Below are positions 11,938 to 46,481 of a stretch of DNA of 57,008 bases, one piece after another. The notes under the pieces are model-generated. The model saw nothing but the letters and a program-made list of their open reading frames with translations. It had not been told where the DNA came from and ran no database searches. The position numbers were made by a program, and so were the translations under genes. Position 1 is the stretch's first letter. Every line of letters starts with the position of its first letter. This stretch comes from Verrucomicrobiota bacterium (GTDB lineage: Bacteria > Verrucomicrobiota > Verrucomicrobiia > Limisphaerales > CANJXF01): assembly GCA_038214755.1 (NCBI GenBank), contig JBBQRQ010000023.1, positions 1 to 57,008 of the forward strand. The letters are read 5' to 3'.

Positions 11938-13223
11938 AGGCTCCGCCTTTCGTGCGCCACCGCCGCAACGGGAATTTTTTTGCCGGGCGACGAACGCTTT
12001 GCCGCCGGTGACACTTTGCTTTTTTGTTTTTTTCCGAAGCTGACGAGGTGCATTAAAAATTGAGTCAACAACCCTGCGCCGACCAACGTGCAGGCGAGAT
12101 ATGGCGTGATCGCCGCCGGATTTTTTACAACTTGCAGCACAGTAATTTTGTCATTGAATTTATCGAATCCCGCTTGGAAAAAAGTTTCGCCCGCATAGCG
12201 CAACGGATCGTTCATTTTGATCAGCACATCGCGTTCTTCGCCGTGAGCACGGTCGCTCAAATGAATTTTACTGGAAAAATTCTTTGGAGTGAGTGTGCCG
12301 GCGTAAAGGTCGTGGCGAAATTCCAGCAGCGTGACCTGATACGGCTTGTAGTAACGAATCGGGCGCAGCGCAATCTGGTAAGTGTGACCGTTGAACTCAA
12401 AACTTTGCGGCTCGGTCAACGCGCTTCCGAGCAATGTTCCCATTTTTCGACCAAGAGAAAAGTTCCACGGAAATTTCGTAAGCCAGAGGGAAACCGTCCA
12501 ATCTCCAATCGGCCTTTTGTCCGAAACAATTTCCAAAAGCGCTGTCGGTTTATTTTCGTCGTCCATCGTCGCGACCAACGGCGCTGGAGAAAATTGGAGG
12601 CGTTTTCCAATTCCTTCTGTCGCTTTGATATTGTTGGCTGCGAAGATCATCGGCCCGGCCGGTTCTGAATTCTGGAAAAAGTTTTTTACGCGAATGGCAA
12701 ACGGGAGTTTCGGATGATGAATTTCTCCACCTTTGGCGAGAAGCGTTTCGGGAATGGAAACAACTTCATCGTGATCAGGACTGGAAACATCAATGACCGC
12801 GAGTTCGTTGTGGCGGGAATCTTCGCTGTAGTTCCGCGTCTCCCCTTCCGCAAAACGGATGTTGCTCTCCACCTGAAAAAGCTCGGTCAAAAATTGGCCG
12901 AGCAACAACAAAATCAATCCGCCGTGAATGAGAAAAATTCCGGCTTTTTTTTTCGTGAGTTGAAAACGTTTTGCATGCGCGGCGATGAGGTTGATCAAAA
13001 GCAAACCGCCGAGGAGCCAGCCGCCGGGAAAAACCGGGATTTTCCAACTTGCGCCTTTCGGTTGCCAAAAAATAAACAGGCTGCGGAAATATTCCGACTG
13101 CGCGGTATAAAGACCGAGCTTCACTTGCGCGAGCGTGCCGATGAAAACCAACAGCAACGCGAGACTGAGAAGCGCCACGGTCAATCGCAGCGAGCAGAAG
13201 AAACTGATGACGCGGTTAATCAT
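11934..13223 (-). CDS. resB: Cytochrome c biogenesis system II protein ResB/CcsB-like
   Basis: SLRLTV...IGTLAQ, IHGG TM histidine, MNDPLRYAGETFFQ. Start placed at ATG 13223. Confidence 0.85.
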   Translation of the reverse strand: MINRVISFFCSLRLTVALLSLALLLVFIGTLAQVKLGLYTAQSEYFRSLFIFWQPKGASWKIPVFPGGWLLGGLLLINLIAAHAKRFQLTKKKAGIFLIHGGLILLLLGQFLTELFQVESNIRFAEGETRNYSEDSRHNELAVIDVSSPDHDEVVSIPETLLAKGGEIHHPKLPFAIRVKNFFQNSEPAGPMIFAANNIKATEGIGKRLQFSPAPLVATMDDENKPTALLEIVSDKRPIGDWTVSLWLTKFPWNFSLGRKMGTLLGSALTEPQSFEFNGHTYQIALRPIRYYKPYQVTLLEFRHDLYAGTLTPKNFSSKIHLSDRAHGEERDVLIKMNDPLRYAGETFFQAGFDKFNDKITVLQVVKNPAAITPYLACTLVGAGLLTQFLMHLVSFGKKQKSKVSPAAKRSSPGKKIPVAAVAHERRSL

Positions 13224-13244
13224 TTGCGGAATGAAGCTCACTTT

Positions 13245-13371
13245 GTAGCGCAGGTTTCCAACCTGCTGTATCGCCGATTTCCAATCGGCAAGCCATGCGA
13301 ACGCGAGTTGATCCGGCGAACATCCAGCGGGTTGGAAACCCGCGATACAGCAGATTGGAAATCTGCGCTAC
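13245..13371. repeat. GTAG-type REP-like doublet
   Basis: gtagcgcaggtttccaacctgc ... gcagattggaaatctgcgctac, related to the element at 33758-33894. Confidence 0.8.
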
Positions 13372-13525
13372 GGCCCTAAGGCGAAATCCCGGGTTAAGCA
13401 GTTTTCGTCGGGAAAAAGAAAACCGTTGAAACGGTTCGACATTCCGCACGTCACTTTTCACCCAGCTAAAGGAGGGTGCTAATGAGATAACAGCAACCTC
13501 GGCAAATTCTAATTGGGAAAGTATT

Positions 13526-14617
13526 TTAATCATTCGGATAGTGAACGGATTGCACAAATTTCACAAACGCATCTTTCTCCCGGGCGACGGTCGCTTCGTC
13601 ACCCATCAATTTATAGAACCAGATTTTCTCTTTGCGCGGAACCGTGGCGGCGATCAGGTGCGCGGGTTTTCCGGTTTTTGCATCGGTGCCGTTCATGTCC
13701 ACTAGAGTCGCTTTTCCGCCGAGCACGTCAATGGGCGTTGTCAGTTTGGCAACATCGGATTCGGCAACCGGATCAAGCGAAAGCTGCTTGCGCCAGCGAT
13801 TGACGTTCATCAGTAAACTGCCGCCTGAACCCGAAAACGTGGTCACGGAAACTTTTGCTTCGTGATCCGCATCGCCGACGGAAAAACTTTTCAACACCAT
13901 CTCGGAAGGCGGCTTTTCCTGCCAATTCGCCGGGACTTCCCATTTCGGTTCGCCGGAGGAGCCTTCGTTGGGAACTTTTTTAATGTTGGTGCTGACTGGT
14001 TTCGCGGCAACCAGCGCTTCGGCTGGTTTGGCGGCGTTGAAATTAATCGCTTTCAAAAACTCGACGAAGACAGGTTTGTTTTGGGAAACGATTTCTTTGT
14101 CGCCGCGCATTTTGAAAAACCAGCTTGTGCCCTCTCTTTCCAAAACGGCCGCGATGGTTTTCTGTTGAGCGCCGGTGAGTTCGTAAAGTTTTCCGTCCGA
14201 CGCGCCGATGGAAATTTTCTCAGAAACGATTTCGTTCTCGGCAATGGGCGACAAACTGATTTCGTTTCGCCAACGATTCACGTTTCCCAACTCGGTTCCA
14301 GCTCCTCCAGAAAGAGGAACAATGGAAACTTCCGCTTTTTTCTCGCCACTCGTGACCAGAAAATTGCCGACGCGCATCTCGGTCGGCGCTAATTCCTTCC
14401 AGCCCGCCGGAGTTTCCCAATGGATCGTGGAAGCGTTGGGGTTCGCGGAAATTTCATTTTGCGCCATTGCCGGTCGCGCTTCGGCGGGAACTTCTTTCGG
14501 CACGGAATAAACTTTGATTTCTTCTTTGCCGCAGCCAATGAAAATCAAACTCCCTAAAACCGACAACATTCTTTGCGCTGAACGATGGCCTTGATAAAAG
14601 GTAAATTTTTCTCTCAT
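13526..14617 (-). CDS. Putative lipoprotein with two tandem domains, upstream of resB-ccsA
   Basis: Lipobox-like IFIGC and duplicated WxxPxxWxE...NVNRWR...WFxKxxG units. Start uncertain (14617 or 14569). Confidence 0.7.
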   Translation of the reverse strand: MREKFTFYQGHRSAQRMLSVLGSLIFIGCGKEEIKVYSVPKEVPAEARPAMAQNEISANPNASTIHWETPAGWKELAPTEMRVGNFLVTSGEKKAEVSIVPLSGGAGTELGNVNRWRNEISLSPIAENEIVSEKISIGASDGKLYELTGAQQKTIAAVLEREGTSWFFKMRGDKEIVSQNKPVFVEFLKAINFNAAKPAEALVAAKPVSTNIKKVPNEGSSGEPKWEVPANWQEKPPSEMVLKSFSVGDADHEAKVSVTTFSGSGGSLLMNVNRWRKQLSLDPVAESDVAKLTTPIDVLGGKATLVDMNGTDAKTGKPAHLIAATVPRKEKIWFYKLMGDEATVAREKDAFVKFVQSVHYPND

Positions 14618-14685
14618 TACAGAAGTATTAAAACGATTCGGGCAAAAGTTTGAGCACAATCCGGTTAACTCGGACGTGCGATGAG

Positions 14686-15081
14686 TCAGACTTGTTCGAC
14701 TTTGAGTTTTTCGCCAGTTGCTTTTCTTGCCAGATCAAAATGAATATCGCGACAGACCACCGGCAGATCACATCGGATCGCCACCGTTACCACAAAAAGA
14801 TCATTGCGCGGGATGAACAGGCCTTTCGCCCGAAATTGTCGTTCGAGAATCGCCGCCGCCGGCCAGTCATCCGTCTCAAACAGAAAATGATGGCTCATCG
14901 CCAACGCTTGCTGCAAGTCATCCTCTTCATTTGGCTTCACACCGCTCAAAAGTTCAAAATGAATCGGACAAGTGTAAGCAGCGCAATCCGTTTCCAGCAG
15001 GCGGGCCACCCGATGTTTTATTCTGGAATCTCCTTTGGCTCGCAAAAACTGAACCCACGCAGACGAATCAATGAGTCTCAT
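14686..15081 (-). CDS. vapC: VapC-family PIN-domain toxin
   Basis: LIDSSAW, FELLSG, NDL, DIHF acidic PIN residues. Confidence 0.9.
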   Translation of the reverse strand: MRLIDSSAWVQFLRAKGDSRIKHRVARLLETDCAAYTCPIHFELLSGVKPNEEDDLQQALAMSHHFLFETDDWPAAAILERQFRAKGLFIPRNDLFVVTVAIRCDLPVVCRDIHFDLARKATGEKLKVEQV

Positions 15082-15283
15082 ACACGTCACGAGCTTCCAG
15101 TTCCTCGTTCGTCAGCGAATAATCGGTTTTCCCCGCCAGGGCGCGCTCGATGAACGCTCGTTTCTCCTGCATCCGGATGTAATCCGACAACGCCTGGCTC
15201 ACGGCTGGAGATTTCTTCTTTTGTCCGGTCGCCTTTTGAATTTGTTTTAATTCTTTTGCATCAATTTCAACGGTAATTCTCAT
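15068..15283 (-). CDS. vapB: VapB-family antitoxin
   Basis: MRITVEID...TGQKKKSPAVSQAL, overlapping vapC. Confidence 0.8.
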   Translation of the reverse strand: MRITVEIDAKELKQIQKATGQKKKSPAVSQALSDYIRMQEKRAFIERALAGKTDYSLTNEELEARDVYETH

Positions 15284-15339
15284 ACAATGATTTGAGAATA
15301 CGATGCAAAGACAATTCCACAAGTCAGCTTTTCAGAAAG

Positions 15340-15450
15340 TTATTTTCCGACAGCCATGACCTCGCGTGTGATGAAGGCATCCAACTCATTTTCCATTTGA
15401 GAGAAAAAGACTTTCGCAATTTCATCGCGATGTGCCTTCAATTTATCCCA
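15340..15450 (-). pseudogene. Probable HEPN toxin remnant fused to a displaced rho tail
   Basis: WDKLKAHRDEIAKVFFSQMENELDAF follows the MNT gene with no RxxxxH core. It ends MAVGK*, like the rho ending MTVGK*. Confidence 0.4.
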
Positions 15451-15724
15451 CGCGGATGAGTTCATTTTCATCCTTCAGGTAACGGGTGAACGGAGTTTCT
15501 TGATCCAAATCGACCAAATCCACAGTGCGATCAGAAACCTCTCCGGCGCGGGCGGCTGCGTGAAAAAAATTTTGGGCGGGCAAACCGGAAATCGCCAAAT
15601 CCAAATCAGAAGAAACGGACACGCGGCCTCTCGCTGTAGAACCGAAAAGATAAATTTCCCGCGCGCCAGCCGATTTGAGTTCGGCGACAACGCGTTCGAC
15701 ATCTCCATTGATTTCCGGTTGCAT
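15443..15724 (-). CDS. Minimal nucleotidyltransferase (MNT) antitoxin
   Basis: YLFGSTARG...SDLDLAI...VDLVDL. Confidence 0.88.
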   Translation of the reverse strand: MQPEINGDVERVVAELKSAGAREIYLFGSTARGRVSVSSDLDLAISGLPAQNFFHAAARAGEVSDRTVDLVDLDQETPFTRYLKDENELIRVG

Positions 15725-17272
15725 CTATTTTCCGACCGTCATGCCGAGGAGAAACTCGATATTGCTTCCCGTCTTCTTCAGCTTATTCAGCATCAATTCC
15801 ATCGCCTCGACGGGCGGCACTCCGGTGAGAGCGCGGCGCAGCATGACGACTTTGTCGTATTCCTGCGGATGATAAAGCAGCTCTTCTTTGCGTGTGCCGG
15901 ACACCTCGATGTTGATCGATGGGAAAATTCGGCGATCAACCAAATGACGGTCGAGACTGACCTCCATGTTGCCGGTGCCTTTGAATTCTTCAAAAATAAC
16001 TTCGTCCATCCGCGAACCGGTATCGACCAGCGCGGTCGCCATGATCGTGAGTGAGCCACCTTCTTCGATATTCCGTGCCGCGCCGAAAAAGCGTTTCGGT
16101 TTGTGCAATGCATTGGCATCGACACCGCCGGAAAGAATTTTGCCTGAATGCGGTTGCACGGTGTTGTAAGCGCGCGCCAGGCGAGTGATGGAATCGAGCA
16201 AAATGACGACGTCGCGTTTGTGCTCGACCATGCGCTTGGCTTTTTCGATGACCATTTCCGCTACTTGCACATGGCGTTCGGGCGGCTCGTCGAACGTGGA
16301 AGAAATCACTTCCGCGCCTTTGCAACTGCGCTCCATGTCAGTGACTTCTTCGGGCCGCTCGTCGATCAACAAAATAAAGAGATACGATTCGGGATTATTT
16401 TTCAGAATCGCGTTGGCCAGTTTCTGCATCAAAACCGTTTTGCCCGTGCGCGGCGGGGCGACGATCAAGCCGCGTGTTCCCTTTCCAATCGGGCAAACTA
16501 AATCGAGGACGCGCGTGGAAAGCTCATCCGGCGTCGTCTCCAGAATGAAACGCTTGTCCGGGAAGAGCGGCGTGAGATTTTCGAAATGCGTTTTGTCCTT
16601 CGCCTTGTCGGGGTCTTCGCCATCGACTCCTTCCACTTTAAGCAGCGCGAAAAAGCGTTCCTTGTCTTTCGGCGGACGAATTTGTCCGGCGACCAGATTT
16701 CCCGTTTGCAAATCGAATCGCCGAATTTGCGAAGGCGAGACGTAAATATCTTCGGGGCACGGCAAATAATTGAAGCTGCGTGAACGGAGAAATCCAAAAC
16801 CTTCCGGCAAAATTTCCAAAACGCCCTCCGAAAAAAGCACGCCGGCGCGCTCGGCATTTTTCTGGAGGATATGAAAAATAACTTCGTGCTTGCGCATCGT
16901 GCCGAAGTTTTCAATCCCCATGTCGCGGGCCATCTGATTCAACTCCGGCATCGGCATGGCCTGAAGCTTGGCGATGTTCATCGACGCGCCCGGCGCACGG
17001 CGATCCGCTCCACGTTCGCGTGATTCGCGTTTTTGTCCGACCGATTCTTCGCCGTTTTCCTCAACCGGCGTATCTGTCGCAGTCGCTTCGCCATTGTGAG
17101 AGACGTCCGCCATTTCCGGCGGCTGCTTCTCCTCGCGTGAATTCTCCGAAGCGAATTCATCGGCTGAGGCGGATTCAGCCCCGGGCGCGGACTCAATTGC
17201 GGAATCGGAAACTGTTTTTGATTTCGGTTCGCCTTTTATTTTGGGGGCTCGTTTAGTTGCGGCTCTGGGCAT
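15725..17272 (-). CDS. rho: Transcription termination factor Rho
   Basis: [39 protein letters not shown]. Confidence 0.98.
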
Positions 17273-17398: not shown

Positions 17399-17473
17399 TC
17401 AATAAGGCAAAGGAAATCTTGCGGTCAGTTCGCGGACACGCTGCCTCACCCCATGAGCGGCGTCAAGGTTCTT
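17399..17473 (-). pseudogene. Orphan copy of the glyA 3' end (24 codons plus stop)
   Basis: Reads [24 protein letters not shown] versus Gly[25 protein letters not shown] (21494-21568); 58/75 nt identical. Confidence 0.92.
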
Positions 17474-17632
17474 AAAACTGATTTTATTTTGAAGGGGATG
17501 GAAAGGTATGAAGGTGCAAGGCGAAGACGCGATCGCTACGACAGAATAAAATTTTATCGGTGTCGATGATTTGTTTTCTCAGGCCAAGACAATAAATCGG
17601 AAGATCGATCGGCAACGTTACAGGTCGCAAGT

Positions 17633-18970
17633 TTACTTCGTCTGGATTTTTTCTGGCGAGATCGGCACTCCGAGATCAGGCGGCTTATTCCACGAGCGAA
17701 CATCATCAAAGTGAAGTGTCTCAACCGTTCCTCGGTGGCAATCCACTTCGACTTCGATCCATTCGGAACGAGGCTTGCCCCCGCCGGGATACACCCATTG
17801 AATCGTCAGCCGTGGAATCGGCGGCATCCCTTTAATCTCGGTGGGCCGGAAAACGTTCGGTTTCCCATCGATGTGCAATCCAGAATGACCGAGCTTCGTC
17901 ACGGTTTGGCGCGCCAGCTCGATGGCTTGTTCTTCCGTGAGTTTCCAGTCGCCGAGATAATCCTTCAGCCGAAACGGGATGTCTTCGCTATCAAAGAAGC
18001 GGCGTGACGAACTGATTTGCGTGATGCCGTTGACGCGATAAACAAACTTCCAATTATTCTTCAAGAACAAGTCCACGTAAGGCGACCCGCCATTGTTACT
18101 GCAATAAAATCGTCTGACCTGTTTGGTCGTAATGGGCAACGGCAAGTCGAGTCCCAGTTTGCGCACCATATCTTCGGCCGCGCGCAAGACTACGGGCACG
18201 AGGCAATAGGCATATTCCGGGTTGATGTCGTTCGTCCATTCGTTCATGCGCCGCCAGGAACGGGCGAGGGGATTAAAGGGGGAGTCTGGCAATTCAGCTG
18301 GCAGGATTTTAACTTTTGGCGGCGGGCGCTGGATGATGGCCAAAGTGGAACTAAATCTAAGTGACGCAATCGTTTTTCGTTGGGCATCCACTTCGATCTG
18401 GGTTGTTGAAATTTTGCTGCGCGGATCCGGCCACATAATTTGGTAATAAGGTATAATATTCGTTCCAATCTGCGGCAAGGGCAGGACGGTTGGTTCTAAA
18501 TTGGCGAACACATCTTCCAGCGAATAGCCGAGTTTTCTGATCGTTTTTCGGGCGAAAGTAATGGCCTCCGCCTGCGTCATTCGAGGAGTCCCGTAAAAGC
18601 TGGGCCGCCGATACAAAGCTTCGTATCCCGAGAAAAACGACTGAGGGCCGATAAAACCGCCCACCCCTTTTTCAAACCAAATAATATAACCATTCGAGAG
18701 TTCGACCGTCCCGCCGATTTCTCCTCTACGATGCTCGAATGGGAATCGTTTGATTTGTTTCATCTCAGGCACTGGGAGATCCAGTTTTTTTGCGAAGCTT
18801 CTAATATGTGGAAAGACGGCCTTCAACACGGCATTGGAATAAACTGGATCCCAAATATTGATCAACTCGCCGCAACAAAGAAAATCAATTTTGAAATCTT
18901 CAGTTTTGTCTTTCGCCGGGAGCGGCAAACTCGTTAACGCCAGAACGGCCAGAATAATCCAAATTTTCAT
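17633..18970 (-). CDS. Secreted hypothetical protein with an internal duplication, PepSY-like segments
   Basis: Signal peptide. Repeats TQAEAITFARKTIRKLG...IEVDAQRKTI and TEEQAIELARQTVTKLG...VEVDCHRGTV. Confidence 0.75.
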   Translation of the reverse strand: MKIWIILAVLALTSLPLPAKDKTEDFKIDFLCCGELINIWDPVYSNAVLKAVFPHIRSFAKKLDLPVPEMKQIKRFPFEHRRGEIGGTVELSNGYIIWFEKGVGGFIGPQSFFSGYEALYRRPSFYGTPRMTQAEAITFARKTIRKLGYSLEDVFANLEPTVLPLPQIGTNIIPYYQIMWPDPRSKISTTQIEVDAQRKTIASLRFSSTLAIIQRPPPKVKILPAELPDSPFNPLARSWRRMNEWTNDINPEYAYCLVPVVLRAAEDMVRKLGLDLPLPITTKQVRRFYCSNNGGSPYVDLFLKNNWKFVYRVNGITQISSSRRFFDSEDIPFRLKDYLGDWKLTEEQAIELARQTVTKLGHSGLHIDGKPNVFRPTEIKGMPPIPRLTIQWVYPGGGKPRSEWIEVEVDCHRGTVETLHFDDVRSWNKPPDLGVPISPEKIQTK

Positions 18971-18971
18971 T

Positions 18972-21122
18972 TTAAGGCTCCGGGGGTGGCGGCCAATCGC
19001 CGCGCTGGTTGAATTCGTTCAACCGAAGTTCCCTATAACCATAAACCCTTATGGTATTCTCGAAGGTGGCCTGCGAAATCCAGCCGGAATTTTGGTATGC
19101 TCGTGTTAAAGCACCGACGATAGAGAGTGAGTTTGCCTGCTGACGCCACCAAAACATCCATTCGCTTCTGAAGAATGCATATTTTCGATAGTCTCCCCAC
19201 TGGTTTCCTTCATTGTCCGTATAAATCGTATTTAAGGGATAAGAGTAATACGTATCTACATTCCATCCGACGAAAGCCGATGGCCGAGTGTAGGCGAATC
19301 GATCTTGATTTGTGTAATAAGCCAGATCGTTGGTCTGCGCCCCGATGCCGAAAGCGGCCGGCCAATCGCCGGCAACGGTTGAACAACCGTCCAAGAAGAC
19401 AAACCGATATGGATGAGGCTCATCACCAAAAAGCGTCGAAAATTGATAGCACCATCCGCTGAAGAGAAACGCTTCCGTGCGAACCGTATTAGTTCCGTCC
19501 TGATAAACGTTCAAGTCGTATTCCGCGCCATCAGGATGAATCCCATACGGCGGTTCATTCGTCATCTTGTCCCAATCGCCCCCGATCACAAAAGCAGAGC
19601 CATGTCCCCAGTAATAAAAATTCCGAAAGAGCGGCTGCAGCAAATGGCCTTTCAAATTATCCCACGATGCGTTGCGATCCTTCATCGCTTGCAATGGGTC
19701 AGGCGACATGTCCACATCGTTGGTTCTTCCGTATTTGAGCAAAATGGACGCTGACGCCAAACCGGCCAGGCTGGGACCGCCGCGCACCGCCTGCCATGCC
19801 TCAATCGTTTTCACACGCGCAGCCGGGACAAACTTGTCCTTGTCTTGATATGCCACGTTCCACCCGCCGTTGTATGGATAATCCAAAGCGGAAAGCGGCG
19901 CGGGTCGTTGCACCGTTCCACCCGCCGAAATGAGCGTCACATAAGGATCAAAATAAGGATCGGCTTCCACGTTGTCCCGCAAGTTGCCGAAGTCATCATA
20001 CAAATCCCAGGTCCAGGAAATATTCCCGTTGGTTGTCGTTCCTGTTTGACCGCTCACCCATTGCCCGTTGGCGTCGAACACGTCGATCTCCCAAGTGGCC
20101 GGGAAAATCGTGGTTTGCGCTTTAAAAGTGTGATTGGTTCCGACCAATAAATTATTCCATGTCTTGAAAACAATTGGATTGCTTACCACAATTGAAACCG
20201 CCGGATTGGTCAGCGTCAGGAACGGCGTGGTGTCGGTCAACGCGCCATCCAACTGAAGCGTTGTTCGCAATTGCAGTTGATAAGTTCCATTCGTGAGCCG
20301 GTCGCTGTAAAACCAAATTCCGTAAGTCCATTGCACGTTAGGATTGCCGGGTGTGCCGAAATCATATTGCGCTTGGGTGTAGCGGGCGTAGGGAAACACT
20401 TGGCCGTTGACCAGGATTTGTGCGTTCGGCACCGCTTGCGCATCGACTCCTAAATAAATGGGCAGGAATTCAACGCCATAACTGAAGTGATATTGCGCAT
20501 AATCATAAAAGAAATCAGGCACGAGAAACACGCGAAAAAATGCCATGTTCGGACAATCACATCCGCCGCTCGTTAAATCCATCGGAACAGGTGTTTCGCC
20601 ATCGAAGGATTTCTCGTCGAAGGAAAATTTGCTCTCGCTTTGCTTCTCCGGTTTCTCGACTTCAAAAATGAAGAAATTATTTGTGTCGAAACCCGGCGGA
20701 TAAAGCTTCAGCGGAACCGAAACTCCAGAACTTTGCATCGCCCACAATTCCGTTGCATCATCGGAATCGTCGAATCCACTCGTCGTCATCGACGCGCCGG
20801 GAGCAGGCGGGCCATCCCCGCCCGAAGACGATCCGCCACCGTTGGTTCCTCCCGGGGAGGCGGGAAGAAGGCAACACGGGATAACGAACGTTGTGCGATT
20901 GGTGCTGTTGGCTGGATAGGCATTGGTCAGCGTTCCCCACGGCGTCGATGGATCAAGCGAAGATCTGTTTTGAATCAAAAAATATTCGCTTCCGGTGCTG
21001 GGAAACGAAAGAACGAGATTGGTTCCTTGAATTTCCAGTGACTGGCCGACGACGGCGGATGACTCAAAGACAGAACCCAAGATAAATGCTGCCGCGATAA
21101 TTCCCGATTGGATGGTTTTCAT
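18972..21122 (-). CDS. Secreted protein with C-terminal putative clan CD (caspase/gingipain-like) cysteine peptidase domain
   Basis: Signal peptide from ATG 21122, FYYWGHGS and FVFLDGCS motifs. Confidence 0.65.
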   Translation of the reverse strand: MKTIQSGIIAAAFILGSVFESSAVVGQSLEIQGTNLVLSFPSTGSEYFLIQNRSSLDPSTPWGTLTNAYPANSTNRTTFVIPCCLLPASPGGTNGGGSSSGGDGPPAPGASMTTSGFDDSDDATELWAMQSSGVSVPLKLYPPGFDTNNFFIFEVEKPEKQSESKFSFDEKSFDGETPVPMDLTSGGCDCPNMAFFRVFLVPDFFYDYAQYHFSYGVEFLPIYLGVDAQAVPNAQILVNGQVFPYARYTQAQYDFGTPGNPNVQWTYGIWFYSDRLTNGTYQLQLRTTLQLDGALTDTTPFLTLTNPAVSIVVSNPIVFKTWNNLLVGTNHTFKAQTTIFPATWEIDVFDANGQWVSGQTGTTTNGNISWTWDLYDDFGNLRDNVEADPYFDPYVTLISAGGTVQRPAPLSALDYPYNGGWNVAYQDKDKFVPAARVKTIEAWQAVRGGPSLAGLASASILLKYGRTNDVDMSPDPLQAMKDRNASWDNLKGHLLQPLFRNFYYWGHGSAFVIGGDWDKMTNEPPYGIHPDGAEYDLNVYQDGTNTVRTEAFLFSGWCYQFSTLFGDEPHPYRFVFLDGCSTVAGDWPAAFGIGAQTNDLAYYTNQDRFAYTRPSAFVGWNVDTYYSYPLNTIYTDNEGNQWGDYRKYAFFRSEWMFWWRQQANSLSIVGALTRAYQNSGWISQATFENTIRVYGYRELRLNEFNQRGDWPPPPEP

Positions 21123-21226
21123 AGTTGTTTTTGGTGGGTTCGTTGATTGTGCTAAAAAAGGATACGGATTGTCATGTAAGTATTCTGGCATCCTTTGTCA
21201 AACTTCTTTTCTCGTATTGCTGGCGA

Positions 21227-21487
21227 GTGCCTTCGATCAAGTCGCTTGAAGCTGTCAGTTCCCAAGTCGCGATTCTCTTAAAGGAGGAACGCGAGAAGCG
21301 TGCTCTGTCACTCAATGTTCTGGCTCAAAAAGCGGGCCTGTCACGGCAGACAATCAGTTACGTAGAACAGGAAGTGCAGAATCCGACGCTTGATACTTTG
21401 CTGCGTCTCAGTTCCGCTATGGAAATTGAACTCGCGGATTTAATTAAACGAGCAACCAAAGCCGTCTCGGCGAAAACGAGGGATTGA
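21227..21487 (+). CDS. XRE-family HTH regulator
   Basis: REKRALSLNVLAQKAGLSRQTISYVE...NPTLDTL. GTG start at 21227. Confidence 0.88.
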   Translation: MPSIKSLEAVSSQVAILLKEEREKRALSLNVLAQKAGLSRQTISYVEQEVQNPTLDTLLRLSSAMEIELADLIKRATKAVSAKTRD

Positions 21488-21493
21488 AAATCT

Positions 21494-23659
21494 TCAGTAA
21501 GGCAGCGGAAATCTTGCGGTCAGTTCGCGCACCCGCTGCCGAACGATGTGCGCAGCATCCACATTCTTGATGTCCAGCAGCACCTCGGAAATCATGTCGG
21601 CAATCGCAGCCATCTCCGGTTCTTTCATGCCGCGCGTTGTGACTGCGGGAGTGCCGAGACGAATCCCGCTGCCTTGAAATGGCGAACGCGTTTCAAATGG
21701 GATCGTGTTTTTGTTCACGGTAATTCCCGCTTCATCGAGCGCGATTTGACAATCTTTCCCCGTCAAATTTCTTGAACCGACATCGACCAGCATCAAGTGA
21801 TTGTCCGTCCCGCCGCTGACCAAACGAAAATTATTCTGCTGCATTCCATCGGCGAGCGCCCGCGCATTTATCACAATTTGTTGCTGATAAGTTTTGAAAC
21901 CCGGCTGCAACGCTTCGAGAAAACAAACCGCTTTCGCGGCGATGACGTGCATGAGCGGGCCGCCTTGAATTCCGGGAAACACCTGCGAATCGATTTCCTT
22001 CGCAAACTTTTCGCCGCACAAAATCAAACCGCCGCGTGGGCCACGCAAAGTTTTGTGCGTGGTCGTCGTCACGAAATCAGCGTGGCCAATTGGACTCGGA
22101 TGAATTCCCGCCGCCACCAACCCAGCGATGTGGGCGATGTCCGCCAGCAACATCGCGCCGACTTCGCGCGCGATTTCTCCCATCCGTTTAAAATCGATGA
22201 CGCGCGAATACGCGCTCGCGCCGACCGTGATCATTTTCGGTTTATGTTCCCGCGCGATTTTCGCAAGTTGGTCGTAATCGATCCGCTCGTCCTCTTTTCT
22301 GACGCCGTAGTGAACGATCTCAAAAAATTTTCCGGAAAAGTTTGCTTTGTTGCCGTGCGTCAAATGTCCGCCGTGACTCAAATCCATCGTCAGCATTTTG
22401 TCGCCGGGTTTGAGCATGGAAAAATAAACCGCCATGTTCGCCTGGCTGCCAGAGTGCGGCTGGACGTTGGCGTGTTCCGCGCCAAAAAGTTTTTTCGCTC
22501 GATCGATGGCGAGTTGTTCGACGACATCGACATTTTCACAGCCGCCGTACCAACGCTTCTTCGGATACCCCTCGGCATATTTGTTCGTGAGCACTGAGCC
22601 TTGCGCTTCCATCACGGCGGGGCTGGTGAAATTCTCGCTCGCGATCAACTCGATGTTTTCCTGCTGGCGAAGGCCTTCGAGAAAAATCGCGTCGGCAATT
22701 TCCGGATCGACCATTCTCAATTTCAATTCGTTGGGAGTTTTAGAAGTTTCCATTTTATTTACGCGTCGTTCGTGTCGTCCGCCTTCAAATTTCGCGGCTA
22801 AAAATGCGTCCACCATTTTGATGGCTTGTTCAGGCGGAGTAATTTTTCCGCCGATGCAAAGCACGTTGGCGTTGTTATGTTGTCGCGCCATCGTGGCCAT
22901 GTCCTCGCTGAAAACCAACGCGGCGCGGATGCCGGGAATTTTGTTGGCGGCAATGCTCATCCCAACGCCAGTCGTGCAAATCAGCACGCCGAGATCACTT
23001 TTTCCGGCGGCGACATTTTTTGCGACGGACTGCGCATAGTCCGGGTAGTCCGATTGCTCGGCAGAATGAACGCCCAAATCGGCCACGTCGATTCCGCACT
23101 CGCGCAAATGATTTTTTAAAATCTCCTTCAACTCAAACCCACCGTGATCCGAGCCGATGGCAATGGCCGTTCTCTCCGCGCTCCGCATTTCCAAGCCCGG
23201 GGAAGTTTGTTGGATAAATTTAAAGAGCGACGCGATGCCCTGCTCAATTTGATCGCGACAATCCAGATAAGTTTCAAAAGAGCAGCCGATGGGATCGCTG
23301 ATGTCCTTTTCAAAAATGTCGAGCGTCTCGTCAAACTCCCGCAGCAAAAAAGTTTTCTCCGCCGCGAAGGGATAAAGTAGATTGATGGTATCGACATGGT
23401 GATGCGTCAGGCCAAAAATGTAATCGGCTTCCTGCACCAATTGGGCCGTGAGCATGTGGCTGCGCTGCCGCGAAATATCGATGCCGATTTCTTTCAACGC
23501 GCGAACCGCATGCGGACTGGGCGGCTGGCCATCGATGGCGCCGACACCGGCGGAAAGCACTTTGAGATCGTGTCGCCCCCGCATTGCGTGGCGAAAAAGT
23601 CCTTCGGCCATGGGACTGCGGCAGATATTTCCGGTGCAAACGAAAAGGATGGTCTTCAT
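21494..23659 (-). CDS. glyA: Fusion of LMW protein phosphatase, ribose-5-phosphate isomerase B and serine hydroxymethyltransferase
   Basis: CTGNICRS P-loop and DPIG; GSDHGG, DYPD, HNNAN, FEGGRH (RpiB); [25 protein letters not shown] (SHMT), all in one open frame. Confidence 0.95.
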
Positions 23660-23711
23660 TCCCGCGTAAAAAATCAAAGTGAGGCGCGTCGCCAGAATCG
23701 TCAACGGAAAA

Positions 23712-26741: not shown

Positions 26742-26793
26742 TCATCGCACCGCCTTCTTCGATGATGGCGCGACGGAACTGCGCGCCGTCGAA
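26742..26793 (-). pseudogene. Orphan degenerate copy of the purD 3' end
   Basis: FDGAQFRRAI, a frameshift, then SKKAVR* versus PurD FDGAQFRRDIAAKARR*. Core is 22/24 nt with both changes synonymous. Confidence 0.8.
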
Positions 26794-26813
26794 TCCATTC
26801 CATCCCCCCGCAA

Positions 26814-26914
26814 AAAGCGCCAGAGGACTGGCGCACTCCAAGACGCTTCGCGAAGATCGGGAGTCCCCGGAAAACGCGCCAGCGTCTTGGACTGCGGCGG
26901 CCCTCCGCCGCTTT
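26814..26914. repeat. REP-like doublet
   Basis: aaagcgccagaggactggcgcactccaagacgct / agcgtcttggactgcggcggccctccgccgcttt. Confidence 0.75.
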
Positions 26915-26934
26915 CGGCCAGCGATAACGCCAAC

Positions 26935-28224
26935 CTAACGCCGTGCCTTCGCCGCGATGTCGCGACGAAACTGCGCGCCATCGAAATGGATTTTTTCCAC
27001 CGCTGCGTAAGCTGCCGATTGCGCGGTCATTAAATTTTCCGCCCATGCCGTCACGCCCAAAACGCGCCCGCCGTTCGTGACGATTTGATCGCCTGACTTC
27101 GCCGTTCCCGCATGAAAAACTTTCGTGTTCGACAACTGCGCCACTTCATCCAAACCGGAAATTATTTTTCCCTTCGCATAATTTCCTGGATAACCGTCGC
27201 TCGCCATCACGACGCAAACCGCCGCGCCCGGTTTCCATTTCAAATTTATTTTCGCCAATTTTCCATCGACGCTCGCGTCCAGCAGTTCGACCAGATCATT
27301 TTCCAATCGCGTTAGATAAACCTGCGCTTCCGGATCGCCGAAGCGCGCGTTGAATTCCAAAACTTTCGGTCCGTCGCGCGTCAGCATCACGCCCGGATAT
27401 ATTATCCCGCGAAAATCAATTCCTTCTTCCGCGCAACCGTTGAGCCACGGATCCAAAATTTTTCGGCCTACTTCCGCGAGTTCCGTTTCGTTCAAAAACG
27501 GAGTCGGCGAATAGGTTCCCATTCCGCCGGTATTCGGACCTTTGTCGCCATCGAAAATGCGTTTGTGATCTTGCGAGGTGGAAAAAAGTTTCGCGGTTTT
27601 TCCGTCGCAAATAGCGTGGAGTGAAATTTCCGTTCCTTCCAAGAATTCCTGAATGACAATCGTTGCGCCCGCTTTACCAAAAGTTTTGCTGACAAGAATA
27701 TCGTCAATGGCGCGATTCGCTTCGGCGATGTCGCTGCAAACAATTACTCCTTTTCCAAGCGCGAGGCCGTCGGCTTTGACGGCACAACGTCCGCCTAATG
27801 AAGCCGCGAAATCTTTCCCGTGTTTCGCATTTACAAAAGTTCCAGAGCGCGCGGTTGGAATTCCATATCTCTCCATAAACTTCTGCGCGAAAACTTTCGA
27901 CGACTCAAACTGCGCTGCTTTTTTATTTGGTCCCCAGATGCGAAGATTATTTTTCTGAAATAAATCAACGATGCCGAGCGAGAGAGAATTGTCCGGCCCC
28001 ACGACCGTCAAATCGATTTTGTTCAACTGAGCGCAGGCCAGCAACGTTTCCAGATCGTCGGCGGCGATGTTGACGCACAAAACCGGTTTTCCATTTTGCA
28101 ATCGCTCCAGTTCAATGCCCGCATTTCCCGGAGCGCACCAGATTTCCGTGGCGTGTTGCGACTGCGCCAGTTTCCAAACCAGCGCGTGCTCGCGTCCGCC
28201 TGAACCAATCACAAAAATTTTCAT
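26935..28224 (-). CDS. purD: Phosphoribosylamine-glycine ligase
   Basis: GSGGREHAL, KADGLALGKGV, QDHKR, GPNTGGMG, EFNARFGDPE. Confidence 0.98.
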   Translation of the reverse strand: MKIFVIGSGGREHALVWKLAQSQHATEIWCAPGNAGIELERLQNGKPVLCVNIAADDLETLLACAQLNKIDLTVVGPDNSLSLGIVDLFQKNNLRIWGPNKKAAQFESSKVFAQKFMERYGIPTARSGTFVNAKHGKDFAASLGGRCAVKADGLALGKGVIVCSDIAEANRAIDDILVSKTFGKAGATIVIQEFLEGTEISLHAICDGKTAKLFSTSQDHKRIFDGDKGPNTGGMGTYSPTPFLNETELAEVGRKILDPWLNGCAEEGIDFRGIIYPGVMLTRDGPKVLEFNARFGDPEAQVYLTRLENDLVELLDASVDGKLAKINLKWKPGAAVCVVMASDGYPGNYAKGKIISGLDEVAQLSNTKVFHAGTAKSGDQIVTNGGRVLGVTAWAENLMTAQSAAYAAVEKIHFDGAQFRRDIAAKARR

Positions 28225-30702: not shown

Positions 30703-30705
30703 AAC

Positions 30706-33740: not shown

Positions 33741-33757
33741 ATTCGTAGCGTAGGATT

Positions 33758-33894
33758 CGTAGCGCAGGATTGCATCCTGCCGTATCGCAGGTTTTCAACC
33801 TGCGTGATGTGGCGAGAATGAGAGGGTTTTCCGTGTTGCCGACGTTCAGCCGGTTTCAAACCGGCTATACAGCAGGATGCAATCCTGCGCTACG
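33758..33894. repeat. GTAG-type REP-like doublet
   Basis: Perfect 23-bp IR cgtagcgcaggattgcatcctgc (33758-33780 / 33872-33894). Confidence 0.85.
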
Positions 33895-33949
33895 GTCGGT
33901 ATATCCCTTTCTACTGGATTCTCACTCCTGACTTCTGAATTCTTCCCCC

Positions 33950-35026
33950 GTGCAATTGGCTCATCTGCGCCTTCGCGACTTCCGCAATTACGCGCGGCTC
34001 GATGTCGATTTTGCGCCTGGCTTTCACCTTCTGCTCGGCGACAACGCGCAGGGCAAAACGAATATTCTCGAAGCAATTTATTTGCTCGCGACGCTGCGGT
34101 CTTTTCGCGGAGTCGGCGGCGCGCAAATGGTGCAGCATGGCAAGAAAGGATATTTCGTCGGCGCAAAAGTCGTCGCGCAAGGCGCGCACGAGATAAAGAT
34201 TTATTGGTCGAGCGCGGAACGAAAATTAAGTCTCGATGCGCAACCGGTTCGCAAGCTGGTCGATTATTTCGGAACGCTTCGCGCCGTGGTTTTTTGCACG
34301 GAAGATTTGCAACTCATCAAAGGCGCGGCGCGTTCGCGTCGGCGTTTTCTCGATTTGCTTTTGGCGCAAACGCATCCGGTTTATTTGCCCTTGCTGCAAC
34401 GGTACGCGACGGCGCTGCGTTCCCGCAACGCGCTCCTGAAACAACGCAGCCTAGACGAAGCCGCGCTGGAAAGTTTCACGCGCGAACTGGTGCAAATCGG
34501 AAATCAACTCATAAAATTTCGTCAGGAACTTCTGCCCAAAATTTCTCCGCTCGCCCGTCTCGCCTATCGCCGCATTTCCAGCGACGCCGAGGAGTTGCGT
34601 CTCGTTTATCAACCGGCGGTGAAAAAAGATTTCGCCGTGGAACTCGCGCAGTCCCGTGCCCGCGAAAAAACTTTTCGCTCGACGCTGATCGGCCCGCATC
34701 GCGACGAATTGCAATTGCTGCTCGACGAAAAACCGGCGGTGAAATTTGCCAGCGAAGGACAAAAACGCTCGCTCGCCATCGCGCTGAAAATGGCGCAGGC
34801 CGAATATCTTTCCGGCATCCACGGCTCCCCGCCGATTCTGCTCATCGACGACGTGATGGGCGAACTGGACGCCAAGCGTCGCGCCGGATTTTTGCCGTTG
34901 CTCACCCGCGCGCAACAAGCTCGCAGCCAGGTTTTCATGACCTGCACGGAAGAGAATTGGCCGCGCGAACTTGGAAAAAATTTACAGCGCTGGGAAGTCA
35001 AAGGCGGAGCATTGCGCAAAATTTAA
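33950..35026 (+). CDS. recF: DNA replication/repair protein RecF
   Basis: FRNY, GDNAQGKTN, GPHRDE, SEGQKR, LLIDDVMGELD. Confidence 0.97.
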   Translation: MQLAHLRLRDFRNYARLDVDFAPGFHLLLGDNAQGKTNILEAIYLLATLRSFRGVGGAQMVQHGKKGYFVGAKVVAQGAHEIKIYWSSAERKLSLDAQPVRKLVDYFGTLRAVVFCTEDLQLIKGAARSRRRFLDLLLAQTHPVYLPLLQRYATALRSRNALLKQRSLDEAALESFTRELVQIGNQLIKFRQELLPKISPLARLAYRRISSDAEELRLVYQPAVKKDFAVELAQSRAREKTFRSTLIGPHRDELQLLLDEKPAVKFASEGQKRSLAIALKMAQAEYLSGIHGSPPILLIDDVMGELDAKRRAGFLPLLTRAQQARSQVFMTCTEENWPRELGKNLQRWEVKGGALRKI

Positions 35027-35133
35027 AAGTCCTTTTACAATGGAGTAACCCACAGCGCCTGGTCATTGCGAAGGTGTGTCAAAGACACGAACGTGAACTT
35101 GAAAAGCATGTTGAGAGCAAGCATTCTAATGCC

Positions 35134-35370
35134 ATGAAAACAAACCTTCGCCTCAAACTGACGGCCGTTTTTGAAGCTGCTCCCGAAGGCGGCTACACTT
35201 GTTATTTTGAGGAATTTCCCGACGTGTTTTCCGAAGGTGAAACCATCGAAACAGCCAGGGCGAATCTCCACGATGCGTTGCAACTCGTCCTCGAATATCA
35301 TCGGGACGAGGCGCGGAAAAAAGAAAGCCCCTCCGTCGTGCGTCAGGAAATGGAACTGACAGACGCTTGA
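35134..35370 (+). CDS. hicB: HicB-family antitoxin
   Basis: EGGYTCYFEEFPDVFSEGETIETARANL. ATG at 35134. Confidence 0.87.
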   Translation: MKTNLRLKLTAVFEAAPEGGYTCYFEEFPDVFSEGETIETARANLHDALQLVLEYHRDEARKKESPSVVRQEMELTDA

Positions 35371-35552
35371 AACTTCGGGATCTCGAACGCCACTTGACCA
35401 AACACGGTTGTCATTTCGCACGCGAAGGCGGCAATCACACATTGTGGAAAAATGCACGGACGGGAAAAGTCGCTCCCGTTCCACGTCATCGCGAAATCAA
35501 AGAGGGCACTGTGCGAGCAATCTGCAAGCAACTGGATATTCCCAAGCCGTGA
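35367..35552 (+). CDS. hicA: HicA-family toxin
   Basis: REGGNHTLW...VPRHREI...ICKQL. Confidence 0.9.
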   Translation: MKLRDLERHLTKHGCHFAREGGNHTLWKNARTGKVAPVPRHREIKEGTVRAICKQLDIPKP

Positions 35553-35556
35553 AACG

Positions 35557-35610
35557 CGCAGCCAGGTCTTCATGACTTGCACCCACGAAAATGGGCCACG
35601 TGAATTGGGG
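35557..35610 (+). pseudogene. Orphan copy of the recF 3' region
   Basis: RSQVFMTCTHENGPRELG versus RecF RSQVFMTCTEENWPRELG (34922-34975); 42/54 nt identical. Confidence 0.9.
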
Positions 35611-35631
35611 CGGGAGTTTGCGGAAGATTTT

Positions 35632-35874
35632 TTACGCTGAGAGGTCGTTAATAATTTTGCGCGACTCTGCATCGAAATTAGCGAGGTTCTGGTACGTATA
35701 AACAGCCACCATGATTTCCCGTTTGCCATCAAGATCCGGAACATGATGGTGATGCTTCTCCGGATTCTTGGCTAAATCGCGAGCGGACTGGCCCAATTCG
35801 TCTGCCTCTTCAGGAGTCAGAAAAATGAAGATATTATGAAGGGATTTCTTCGATTCCGGGTCGTAAATTCGCAT
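35632..35874 (-). CDS. Small hypothetical protein
   Basis: 80-aa ATG ORF just downstream of the prepilin-type gene, with an HHHH motif. Confidence 0.6.
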   Translation of the reverse strand: MRIYDPESKKSLHNIFIFLTPEEADELGQSARDLAKNPEKHHHHVPDLDGKREIMVAVYTYQNLANFDAESRKIINDLSA

Positions 35875-40060: not shown

Positions 40061-40130
40061 GGGTAGCATCTGCCTCCGGCGGGTGCGGATCAAAAATTGT
40101 TTTCGCACCCGCCGGAGGCAGATGCAACCC
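40061..40130. repeat. GTAG-type hairpin between convergent mutL and metF (possible bidirectional terminator)
   Basis: gggtagcatctgcctccggcgggtgcg / cgcacccgccggaggcagatgcaaccc. The same arm occurs near 41084, 46154 and 46333. Confidence 0.8.
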
Positions 40131-40145
40131 GTTGAAATGATTTAT

Positions 40146-42251: not shown

Positions 42252-42560
42252 ATGAAGCTGAACTTCAATCGCGAAAAACTTGGGCGTTTCTGCCGGGAAC
42301 GAGGGATCGCCCGGCTCGAATTATTCGGCTCGGGCCTGGGCGAAAATTTACGTCGTGACAGCGACGTGGATTTGCTGGCGACCCTCAGAAAGGACGCTCA
42401 TCCCACGTTGCTCGATTGGGCGGACATGCAGCAGAAACTCGAAGAAATGTTTGGCCGCCCTGTGGATCTGGTTAGCCGCCGCGCCATTGAACGCAGCCGC
42501 AACCGCTACCGAAAATTTTCCATTCTCTCCACGGCGATGCCGATCTATGCCGAGGAATAA
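42252..42560 (+). CDS. MNT nucleotidyltransferase antitoxin
   Basis: LFGS...DSDVDLL...GRPVDLV. Confidence 0.9.
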   Translation: MKLNFNREKLGRFCRERGIARLELFGSGLGENLRRDSDVDLLATLRKDAHPTLLDWADMQQKLEEMFGRPVDLVSRRAIERSRNRYRKFSILSTAMPIYAEE

Positions 42561-42897
42561 CGCATATCTCTCAGATATTCTCGAAGCAGCGAAGGCGATT
42601 CAGCGTTTCACCCATGGAATCTCCCGCGAAGATTTCAAAGCGAACGAGGAAAAATATGAGGCGGTGAATCGGAAGTTCGAGATCATCGGCGAAGCTGCAC
42701 GCCGCTTGTCACCGGATGCTCGCAAGACTTTTCCAGAAATTCCGTGGAAACTCATCACTGCCATGCGAAATATTCTTATCCACGATTACGACGATGTGGA
42801 TTTGGACATCGTTTGGGACACGGCCCAACGCGATCTCCCGCCGTTGATCGCTCGATTAGAACCCTATCTGTCAGGCAATCCGCCTCCGGAACTTTGA
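42547..42897 (+). CDS. HEPN (DUF86/HepT-like) toxin
   Basis: IIGEAA...IPW...MRNILIHDY (RX4HXY). ATG at 42547. Confidence 0.9.
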   Translation: MPRNNAYLSDILEAAKAIQRFTHGISREDFKANEEKYEAVNRKFEIIGEAARRLSPDARKTFPEIPWKLITAMRNILIHDYDDVDLDIVWDTAQRDLPPLIARLEPYLSGNPPPEL

Positions 42898-43078: not shown

Positions 43079-43384
43079 CTATACGCGCGGCTTGATTCCG
43101 AGATGCTCGGCGATGCTTTTGACGATGACGCCGAGATTCCGGGCGGTGGGATTACCATTGCGATTCAACATCCGGTGCAACGTTTTTTCGCCCAGACCTG
43201 TTTCACGTGCCAATTCTTTGAACGTGATTTCGGCGTGAACCACATCGCGCAGCATCGAAAGTCCCTCGGCAGTTTCGCCTTCGACCAACGCGCTGATCGC
43301 TTCTGCGTAGAGCGCGCGCGCAAATTTGCGGTCGCATTGAATTCGCGCCACAACGGTTTCTTTGTAATCTCGTGTCAGTGCCAT
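43079..43384 (-). CDS. Orphan addiction-module antidote (HTH) protein
   Basis: MALTRDYKETV...LARETGLGEKTLHRML...GNPT. No upstream toxin ORF. Confidence 0.8.
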   Translation of the reverse strand: MALTRDYKETVVARIQCDRKFARALYAEAISALVEGETAEGLSMLRDVVHAEITFKELARETGLGEKTLHRMLNRNGNPTARNLGVIVKSIAEHLGIKPRV

Positions 43385-43506
43385 TTTATGCCTTTGTCTG
43401 TCTTCAAATATCACACTCAGCATTCAATTTCATCTGCTCGTCTCCCCTAATAGAACTTGACCACGCTTCCTTTCCTCCGTTCTATTTACGCCGTTAGGCA
43501 AAATTC

Positions 43507-44532: not shown

Positions 44533-44593
44533 TTCTTCAAAGCGTTCACCTCAAATTGTAGCGGCGTCTCTGTGAGCGCCGCAATTGGGTGAA

Positions 44594-45403: not shown

Positions 45404-45429
45404 AAAACTTACGAAGCCATTTGATGAAT

Positions 45430-45563
45430 CGTAGCCGCCGACGTGAGGAGGCGGATTCGTATTTTTCACGCCGAAATTTGCCCCCTCACGTCGGCGGCTA
45501 CGGGATGTCAACGGAAAGAGCCGCTTGGAAAAACTTTGAACTTTGAACCTGAAACTTTGAACT
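45430..45563. repeat. GTAG hairpin plus heptamer array between mreC and mreD
   Basis: cgtagccgccgacgtgagg / cctcacgtcggcggctacg (same family as 30890), then (actttga)n. Confidence 0.8.
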
Positions 45564-45573
45564 CAATGAACCA

Positions 45574-46134
45574 ATGAACGCGCTCAGTCCCATCATCATT
45601 TTGCTCGCGGCGTTTGTGGCGGTTTATTTGCAATCGACGGTTTCATTCTTTCGCGATTTCACCGGCGCACAAATCGACTTGCTCCCGACGCTCGTGGTCT
45701 ACGCAAGTTTGACCACCGGCATCACCACCGTCGCGTTTCTCGCGATTTTCGGCGGACTTTTGTTCGACTCGCTTTCGGCCAATCCGCTCGGCGTTTCTAT
45801 CGTTCCGCTTTTTGTTATTGGCTACGCCATCCACCGGTTTCACGGATTGCTTTTGCGCGAGGAATTTTCCGCGCAGTTCGCGTTTGGCGCATTGGCGAGT
45901 TTGCTCACGCCGTTGCTCACACTTTTAATTTTGCTCAGCGGAAACAGCAATCCGCTGGTGGGGTGGGGAACGATTTGGCAATTTTTTGTAATGTCGCTCG
46001 GCGGCGGTTTGCTCACGCCACTTTGTTTTTTGATTTTGGATCGCATCAATCGCGCGCTGAATTATCAGCCCGCTGCGCAAACCGCGTTCCGCCCAGATCG
46101 CGAAATAAAACGCAATCGTGGCTTAAAATTATGA
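45574..46134 (+). CDS. mreD: Rod shape-determining protein MreD
   Basis: Hydrophobic, GGLLFDSLS...LG motif, operon position. Confidence 0.85.
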   Translation: MNALSPIIILLAAFVAVYLQSTVSFFRDFTGAQIDLLPTLVVYASLTTGITTVAFLAIFGGLLFDSLSANPLGVSIVPLFVIGYAIHRFHGLLLREEFSAQFAFGALASLLTPLLTLLILLSGNSNPLVGWGTIWQFFVMSLGGGLLTPLCFLILDRINRALNYQPAAQTAFRPDREIKRNRGLKL

Positions 46135-46481
46135 ACAGCGCATTTCACAGTACGGGTAGCATCTGCCTCCGGCGGGTGCGAAGAAACGTATTCGGAGCGC
46201 CGATCTCCCGATCGGCACGGACCGGCACTCACGGCAGCGAGCCGATCAGGAGATCGGCGTTCCGTTTCGCCCGGATCGCGAAATCAAACGCAAATCGCGG
46301 ATTAAAATTATGAAGGGCGAATTTCACAACACGGGTAGCATCTGCCTCCGGCGGGTGCGAAGAAACGTATTCGGAGCGCCGATCTCCCGATCGGCACGGA
46401 CCGGCACTCACGGCAGCGAGCCGATCAGAAGATCGGCGTTCCGAAAAATGGCTTCGCACCCGCCGGAGGCAGATGCTACCC
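46087..46481 (+). repeat. About 179-bp tandem duplication of the mreD tail plus a nested REP element
   Basis: 46087-46264 versus 46265-46443. Only the second copy is closed by the outer right arm (46453-46481). Confidence 0.9.

Follow-up and report, generated by a model that had tools for sequence, protein, structure and literature searches.

In the 57,008-nucleotide contig JBBQRQ010000023.1 of a Verrucomicrobiota bacterium (assembly GCA_038214755.1), and throughout the genome to which it belongs, the ends of genes are duplicated around small cassettes: an intact gene is followed by cargo, and the cargo by an orphan copy of the gene's last codons. These gene-end duplications are real and genome-wide. 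We analysed this stretch at its full length and call it the window; it corresponds to contig C23 of a genome of 5.1 Mb in 175 contigs, from an uncultured sediment bacterium (sediment metagenome). An initial annotation of the window had listed six such loci (glyA, recF, mreD, purD, rho and the gene before resB) and had proposed that the arrangement recurs over the genome, that it concerns gene tails, that the two copies differ mostly by synonymous changes, one of them being foreign, and that neither an integrase nor a common site is involved.

We called genes with a self-trained caller (4514 genes) and searched the genome for direct repeats at most 10 kb apart, excluding the multi-copy ones and keeping the pairs of at least 40 bits. 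The pairs were classified as follows: a gene tail with an orphan downstream (62), a gene head with an orphan upstream (30), a tail with a copy upstream (5), a head with a copy downstream (3) and mid-gene repeats (20). Six paralogue-like genes were removed by eye (1 tail pair, 7 head pairs) before we calculated dN/dS, the ratio of non-synonymous to synonymous divergence. This left 61 tail pairs at 56 genes, compared with 5 tails in the wrong orientation. Heads form the mirror image, with 23 pairs at 21 genes, compared with 3. This means that the pattern does extend over the genome, and that it is not limited to gene tails as first thought. With a cruder open reading frame (ORF) caller, we counted 55 tails against 6 in the wrong orientation and 15 heads against 9; since the asymmetry of the heads shrinks, they are less certain than the tails. 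An initial tail scan, at a score of at least 18, retained 91 of 3398 tails, with 4 to 40 in the controls and 62 for heads. The tail repeats are 30-612 nt long (median about 90), and the median cargo is about 790 nt. Among the 62 tail matches, 41 stop between 12 nt before and 10 nt after the stop codon, and 4 extend beyond. Tail cases number 15 in 1.7 Mb of this genome and 0 in 0.89 Mb of long contigs sampled from 12 other genomes; congeners nonetheless carry many tail cases at the same target genes.

The differences between a gene end and its orphan are those of coding sequences. The pooled dN/dS is 0.146 for tails (bootstrap 0.114-0.185) and 0.148 for heads, the pooled dS between copies is 0.44, and the tail differences are distributed over the three codon positions as 194/126/561. 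The proportion of synonymous differences (pS) exceeds that of non-synonymous ones (pN) in 53 of the 58 informative tail pairs, pN/pS being at least 0.5 in 10 of them. For a local copy decaying beside a live gene, one would expect a dN/dS of about 0.5 or more. Hence, we concluded that the two copies were coding sequences of separate lineages while they diverged, which bears out over the genome-wide tail pairs the idea of a foreign copy with mostly synonymous differences. Decay is visible in the orphans, with indels in 26 of 61 and stop codons in 3 of 61, and a few pairs are 95-100% identical.

Family searches on 69 proteins gave, among other targets, gatA, purB, accC, transketolase, a topoisomerase IV/gyrase B gene, pheT, ilvD and acs, together with serS, ftsK, gltX, mutS, lipA, nadA, apt and pyruvate carboxylase. 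Our cargo set has 141 ORFs, which outside the window come from 60 of 70 regions. The Pfam families found in it are mostly ParE, DUF433/DUF5615, PIN, HicAB, MazF, MNT-HEPN (MNT, minimal nucleotidyltransferase), HigB, TumE and AbiEii, and many ORFs have no family. The islets represent 2.0% of the genome, yet 6 of 25 ParE and 5 of 27 DUF433 matches are inside them; this also means that most toxin-antitoxin (TA) modules lie elsewhere. Integrase and transposase Pfam families are found in none of the 52 ORFs of the window and in none of the 141 cargo ORFs, and restriction-modification families in none of the latter. A general family search gave five tyrosine recombinase genes in the genome, all outside the listed islets. 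No 6-mer is common to the junctions, the best one being present at 7 of 84, so that here too the initial annotation was right. In 11 of 84 pairs an ORF crosses the junction with at least 60 nt on the cargo side, and several of these are the orphan's own frame.

In the window itself, the order gene, cargo, orphan holds for glyA, recF, purD and rho, but not for mreD, which is a tandem, nor for the gene before resB, which does not rise above chance. The glyA locus contains:

21494..23704, strand -, fused low-molecular-weight (LMW) phosphatase/RpiB/GlyA gene, 736 aa (Pfam; alignment)
17474..21493, no strand assigned, glyA cargo, 4.0 kb
21227-21487, strand +, XRE-type helix-turn-helix (HTH) gene in the cargo
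18972-21122, strand -, 716-aa protein without Pfam family in the cargo
17633-18970, strand -, 445-aa protein without Pfam family in the cargo
17399..17473, strand -, orphan glyA tail of the resident type, continuing into the spacer that precedes rho (congener alignment)

The DNA of the congeners is 75-85% identical to that of this genome. G001, G003, G005 and G007 match the live glyA tail (21494-21568), which is of the incoming type, at 55-59 of 75 nt, and the orphan at 64-65 of 75 nt. The two copies have 17 differences over these 75 nt, with 12 synonymous and 2 non-synonymous codons. The orphan and the spacer behind it align with the congeners G007 and G003, and in G001, G003, G005 and G007 the cargo is missing at this site and glyA runs straight into the rho spacer. 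The insertion thus duplicated the gene end and retained the old spacer, with no deletion in the recipient. Over the genome, a congener has such a run-on allele, in which the gene end continues into the DNA found here after the orphan, for 9 of the 25 pairs with an ortholog; one shares the whole structure. This shows that the orphan sits on the old downstream DNA, as had been supposed. The cargoes had also been described as unrelated, which fails for that of glyA: it is homologous, at 27% and 35% identity, to the cargo behind transketolase on another contig.

The frame joining LMW phosphatase, ribose-5-phosphate isomerase B and glyA in 736 aa aligns in DNA over its full length in four congeners. 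A 4-kb cargo made of an XRE HTH gene, a large protein and a partner is recurrent (17633-21487 in the window; L063:1341-5005, L059:951-4611 and L071:2458-6596 elsewhere). The large protein has no Pfam family and, by eye, a signal-peptide-like start; this cargo may encode a secreted effector-partner pair.

At recF and rho we found:

33950..35026, strand +, recF (NCBIfam TIGR00611), last 110 nt duplicated
35027..35551, strand +, recF cargo, a hicB-like gene and hicA
35134-35370, strand +, hicB-like gene of this cargo, below the Pfam cut-off
35367-35552, strand +, hicA of this cargo (Pfam)
35552..35630, strand +, orphan recF tail with an internal deletion (alignment, congeners)
15725..17113, strand -, rho, last 18 nt duplicated (Pfam, alignment)
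15358..15724, strand -, rho cargo, an MNT gene (15443-15724; Pfam) and about 85 nt of unassigned DNA, whose short frame matches no family
15340..15357, strand -, orphan rho end of 6 codons (alignment)

Over the 51 nt compared, the recF orphan has 7 synonymous and 2 non-synonymous codons; judged by eye against the congeners, it extends to about 35630 past an internal deletion of ~29 nt. A Logan contig covers 34678-36134, that is, this islet, with zero differences and a flat depth, and its run may be the source of the assembly. In G004 and G008 recF adjoins a pilin-like gene, and G007 has an orphan of its own with another cargo. An 80-aa ORF without family lies between the orphan and the pilin-like gene (35632-35874) and is missing there in G004 and G008. 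As for rho, its orphan has an Ala codon as in G004 and G007, and the 18-nt duplicate beats 150 of 150 null trials.

The remaining three loci are associated with repetitive extragenic palindromic (REP)-like DNA:

26935..28224, strand -, purD, of which 26945-26985 is duplicated
26794..26934, no strand assigned, purD cargo, a REP-like palindrome (inverted self-match 26814-26914)
26751..26793, strand -, orphan purD tail, decayed toward the stop (alignment, congeners)
46085..46264, strand +, mreD tail and REP-like DNA, first tandem copy
46263..46443, strand +, second mreD copy, an orphan tail (46263-46313, one extra base) and REP-like DNA
13216..13546, strand -, REP-containing insert between the upstream gene and resB, a doubtful case (9-nt stop/start overlap repeated)

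The purD duplicate of 30-42 nt, with 2 synonymous changes and 1 non-synonymous, is weak when taken alone (E 0.002 within the window; a stop-anchored null reaches it in 93 of 150 trials). The junction between its REP-like palindrome, which has many copies in congeners, and the orphan is also present in G007. In the coding part of the mreD copies there are 5 synonymous and 0 non-synonymous codons and one extra base. The match continues for 130 nt past the stop with 6 differences, which makes the locus a 179-nt tandem (93% identical) of tail plus REP from two alleles and not a strict succession of tail, cargo and orphan. A closing REP arm follows the second copy only, the gap between mreD and the penicillin-binding protein gene has no insert in five congeners, and no contig spans the tandem among the Logan contigs listed. 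This is the only locus where the continuation of the donor is known; about 2 nt are shared at the junction, by eye. The gene before resB was rejected as an orphan case: the exact match of 9 nt is equalled by 6 of 150 null trials, and what had been taken for an orphan is where the live resB gene begins; in G004 and G007 this start overlaps the stop codon of the preceding gene.

REP-like palindromes of several unrelated families are scattered over the window (1-58, 13242-13373, 26814-26914, 30697-30964, 33756-33895, 40061-40139, 45426-45503 and 46141-46490), some families being nested in one another, as in the mreD spacer. The window also holds TA-type modules, a MazF pair (31815-32416), VapBC (14686-15283), MNT-HepT (42252-42897) and a lone HTH antidote-like gene (43079-43384); no gene-end duplicate was detected at any of the four. 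In G003, copies of a 150-nt repeat flank the MNT-HepT homologue (L177).

Two loci outside the window tell more about the history of the cassettes. In this genome ilvD has four ends, the orphans being of about 510, 130 and 70 nt in order of distance. The cargo end and the junction are common to G004, G007 and G008 (90-96% identity), with different DNA behind each orphan; the orphans of these three genomes are shorter and can be read as products of short-homology deletions. At deoC, the cargo end and the junction are common to G005 and G007 (94-95%), again with different DNA after the orphan, and in both the cassette has lost the first gene of its pair. Since the junctions are common and the downstream DNA is different, cassettes move between species after the junction has been formed. 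The ilvD copies are moreover reciprocal mosaics: close to the junction, G003, G005 and G007 agree with the live copy, and close to the stop with the orphan (P 0.003, 0.008 and 0.012), with a switch point near nt 383 of 512. At this locus G003 has 95% identity upstream, and the DNA located here behind the orphan is found in it as well.

These structures could be produced by the integrase-free integration, through a single crossover (Campbell type), of small circles carrying a gene end and cargo, a reading to which we give an even chance. DNA of a related lineage, with a conserved gene end and its neighbouring cargo, would be closed into a small circle unable to replicate, at first through the end-joining of a linear fragment and later also when an existing tail recombines with its orphan. 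One homologous crossover within the gene-end segment would then insert the circle. The gene would be rebuilt with a foreign end, followed by the cargo, and the orphan would be the other hybrid copy, donor-derived beside the junction and resident-derived beside the old downstream DNA. Orphans would later be trimmed by short-homology deletions, and new cassettes would stack beside the gene. We propose that only events leaving the gene whole survive, hence insertions at gene ends, and that cassettes capable of looping out are lost unless addictive or useful, hence whole TA pairs; that junctions seldom cut cargo genes would fit the reuse of existing cassettes and the retention of addictive ones. 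The circles, the involvement of RecA and of end-joining, the route of entry and the filter of addiction are what we infer. The ilvD mosaic is support at one locus, not proof. Homology-facilitated illegitimate recombination (HFIR) had been suggested as the main route, with small circles as a second idea; classical HFIR leaves deletions (PMC3240628), and the second idea is the better fit.

ComEC, DprA and Ku are encoded in the genome. Ku is present in 7 of 8 congeners, and of 21 genomes from other families 1 gave a match above the cut-off; its involvement is a lead only, and no ligase gene was identified beside it among 5 ORFs examined. The Ku gene (L384:4355-5194) has gatB on one side and a gene for a type II secretion/pilus ATPase on the other, and a second DprA-family match (L058, G000:C8:21292-21804) is close to two islets on contig C8.

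Several observations weigh against the integration of circles. The mosaic is clear at 1 of 8 loci (ilvD), weak at fdh and not resolved at the other six; 8 of 39 non-independent mosaic tests reach P<0.05, and ordinary intragenic recombination also yields mosaics. Low fourfold-site divergence reaches 420-630 nt into purB and mqnE, compared with orphans of 81 and 186 nt, which fits a linear exchange unless the orphans were trimmed. Orphan length and decay show no correlation. Ku is also present in G001 and G005, whose sampled DNA had no tail case, and a duplicated gene end is lacking at many TA modules, among them 19 of 25 ParE and three modules of the window. Finally, neither excision nor a circle joint was found among the joints listed, which come from contigs only; those joints link REP copies and carry no information on circles.

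At purB (L056), the mqnE-like gene (L086) and transketolase (L063), the last 400-600 nt show a fourfold-site divergence to several congeners of 0.13-0.26, down from about 0.4-0.7, which suggests a cross-species exchange of 3' ends. The mreB control also shows low-divergence windows, and no general drop toward the 3' end was found on average over 65 gene-genome pairs (5' 0.429, 3' 0.425).

A one-sided linear integration akin to HFIR, which we hold to be rather unlikely, would be anchored by homology on one side only, in the gene, and the end of the cargo would be joined illegitimately to a point within the resident strand that is displaced. The whole resident end would thereby be pushed downstream, and later spread would occur by double crossover with the orphan as second arm. 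It agrees with the glyA orphan, resident-like along all of its 75 nt, with low-divergence 3' tracts exceeding the orphan at purB, mqnE and transketolase and with the competence genes of the genome, and it has been proposed for orphan arrays of type VI secretion system (T6SS) and Rhs genes (PMC5361080). In HFIR products, however, about 1 kb is generally deleted (PMC3240628), a random junction would often cut cargo genes, which is uncommon here (the 11 of 84 pairs given above), and the reciprocal mosaic at ilvD is not in its favour.

It is less probable still that the target was duplicated in place, the copies being identical at first as proposed for restriction-modification insertions, and that the live end was then replaced by alleles of other species. 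The few pairs that are 95-100% identical would fit, as would a repeat on contig C1 (128669-130546) that spans a stop plus the next start, and target genes are exchanged between species. Most of the roughly 80 loci would nevertheless have had to undergo a further event, and neither the scarcity of pairs with pN/pS of at least 0.5 nor the ending of most tail matches near the stop speaks for it. A recombinase acting in trans, or a REP-associated HUH transposase, is a very improbable maker of the junctions: REP-like palindromes do adjoin the junction at purD and mreD and the genome has its five tyrosine recombinase genes, but none of the 141 cargo ORFs is a recombinase, no motif is common, and about 80 unrelated targets have repeats of very different lengths. 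Assembly chimeras of mixed strains, which the origin in a sediment metagenome and the 93% identical mreD tandem, spanned by no listed contig, might bring to mind, are most unlikely in view of shared junctions in the assemblies of other species (purD, ilvD, deoC), of the Logan contig across the recF islet, even if its run may be the source, and of the decayed orphans.

Returning to the integration of circles, it is possible, and we advance it tentatively, that the islets form a self-renewing cassette system without enzyme of its own. The duplicated gene end would be a portable attachment site; cassettes would loop out, cross species and re-enter the same gene, giving integron-like stacks such as the four ilvD ends, with addiction selecting which ones stay. 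If so, this would be a main route by which the chromosomes of this genus acquire TA modules, with the Ku protein of the family as a possible favouring factor, and the 3' ends of core genes would be forcibly exchanged between species. In this genome, cargo drags core-gene alleles between species. The arrival of chromosomal TA modules without mobile-element genes has been called poorly characterised, and TA islets have been proposed to spread by recombination in flanking core genes (PMC13617665). As about 80 countable scars have readable donor and resident copies, the rival routes can be distinguished by strain comparison or outward PCR.

Among known systems, the prophages e14 and phage 21 in icd supply a new gene tail and displace the old one, with synonymous differences, by means of an integrase and a fixed site. 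The present islets have neither integrase nor fixed attachment site. HFIR shares with them one homologous anchor in a conserved gene and one illegitimate junction; it normally gives an insertion with a deletion, at 3-10 bp of microhomology (PMC3240628, PMC2884548), whereas here there is a duplication. In E. coli, trimmed and recircularised linear DNA gave by single crossover partial gene duplications of 109-950 bp, ten times more commonly than HFIR products (Amarir-Bouhram et al. 2011, PMC3240628). The likeness lies in partial gene duplications of variable length around foreign DNA without integrase; that work was done in the laboratory, using identical homology and selecting for a marker, whereas our case is natural, with diverged alleles, and inferred from genomes. 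The displacement arrays of T6SS effector-immunity and Rhs genes, with displaced orphan 3' ends (Kirchberger et al. 2017, PMC5361080), have likewise the newest module beside the conserved gene and older parts downstream, an integron-like order without integrase. There the variable part is the toxin domain of the protein itself, at few dedicated loci, whereas here the end of a conserved housekeeping gene gives way to an equivalent one and the cargo consists of separate genes.

The closest precedent is the insertion with long target duplication (Furuta, Abe, Kobayashi 2010, PMC2853133; Nobusato et al. 2000 as cited there), in which long repeats of variable length, placed at start or stop codons, enclose restriction-modification cargo, mostly in competent species, and for which amplification and release through the repeats were hypothesised. 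Both have cargo free of mobility genes and long, variable direct repeats, often at translation starts or stops. A direct repeat of more than 30 bp around an insert of less than 20 kb is found at our 61 tail pairs, the 18 nt of rho being too short; repeat length, lack of a mobility gene and an empty site in a relative (the 9 of 25 pairs) agree, while no restriction-modification family is found in our cargo ORFs and the repeats, with the pooled dS given above, are not near-identical as a set. That work describes restriction-modification genes, with one or a few cases per genome and near-identical repeats (43/46 to 47/47 in rows of its table); here there are about 80 loci, TA-rich cargo, synonymous divergence, stacks and sharing between species. 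In the literature covered, which leaves out most subscription journals and all supplements, we found no description on the scale of a genome, either with TA cargo or in this group. The geometry is hence already in print (PMC2853133); what is new here is the scale, the TA cargo, the foreign origin of one copy and the reuse across species.

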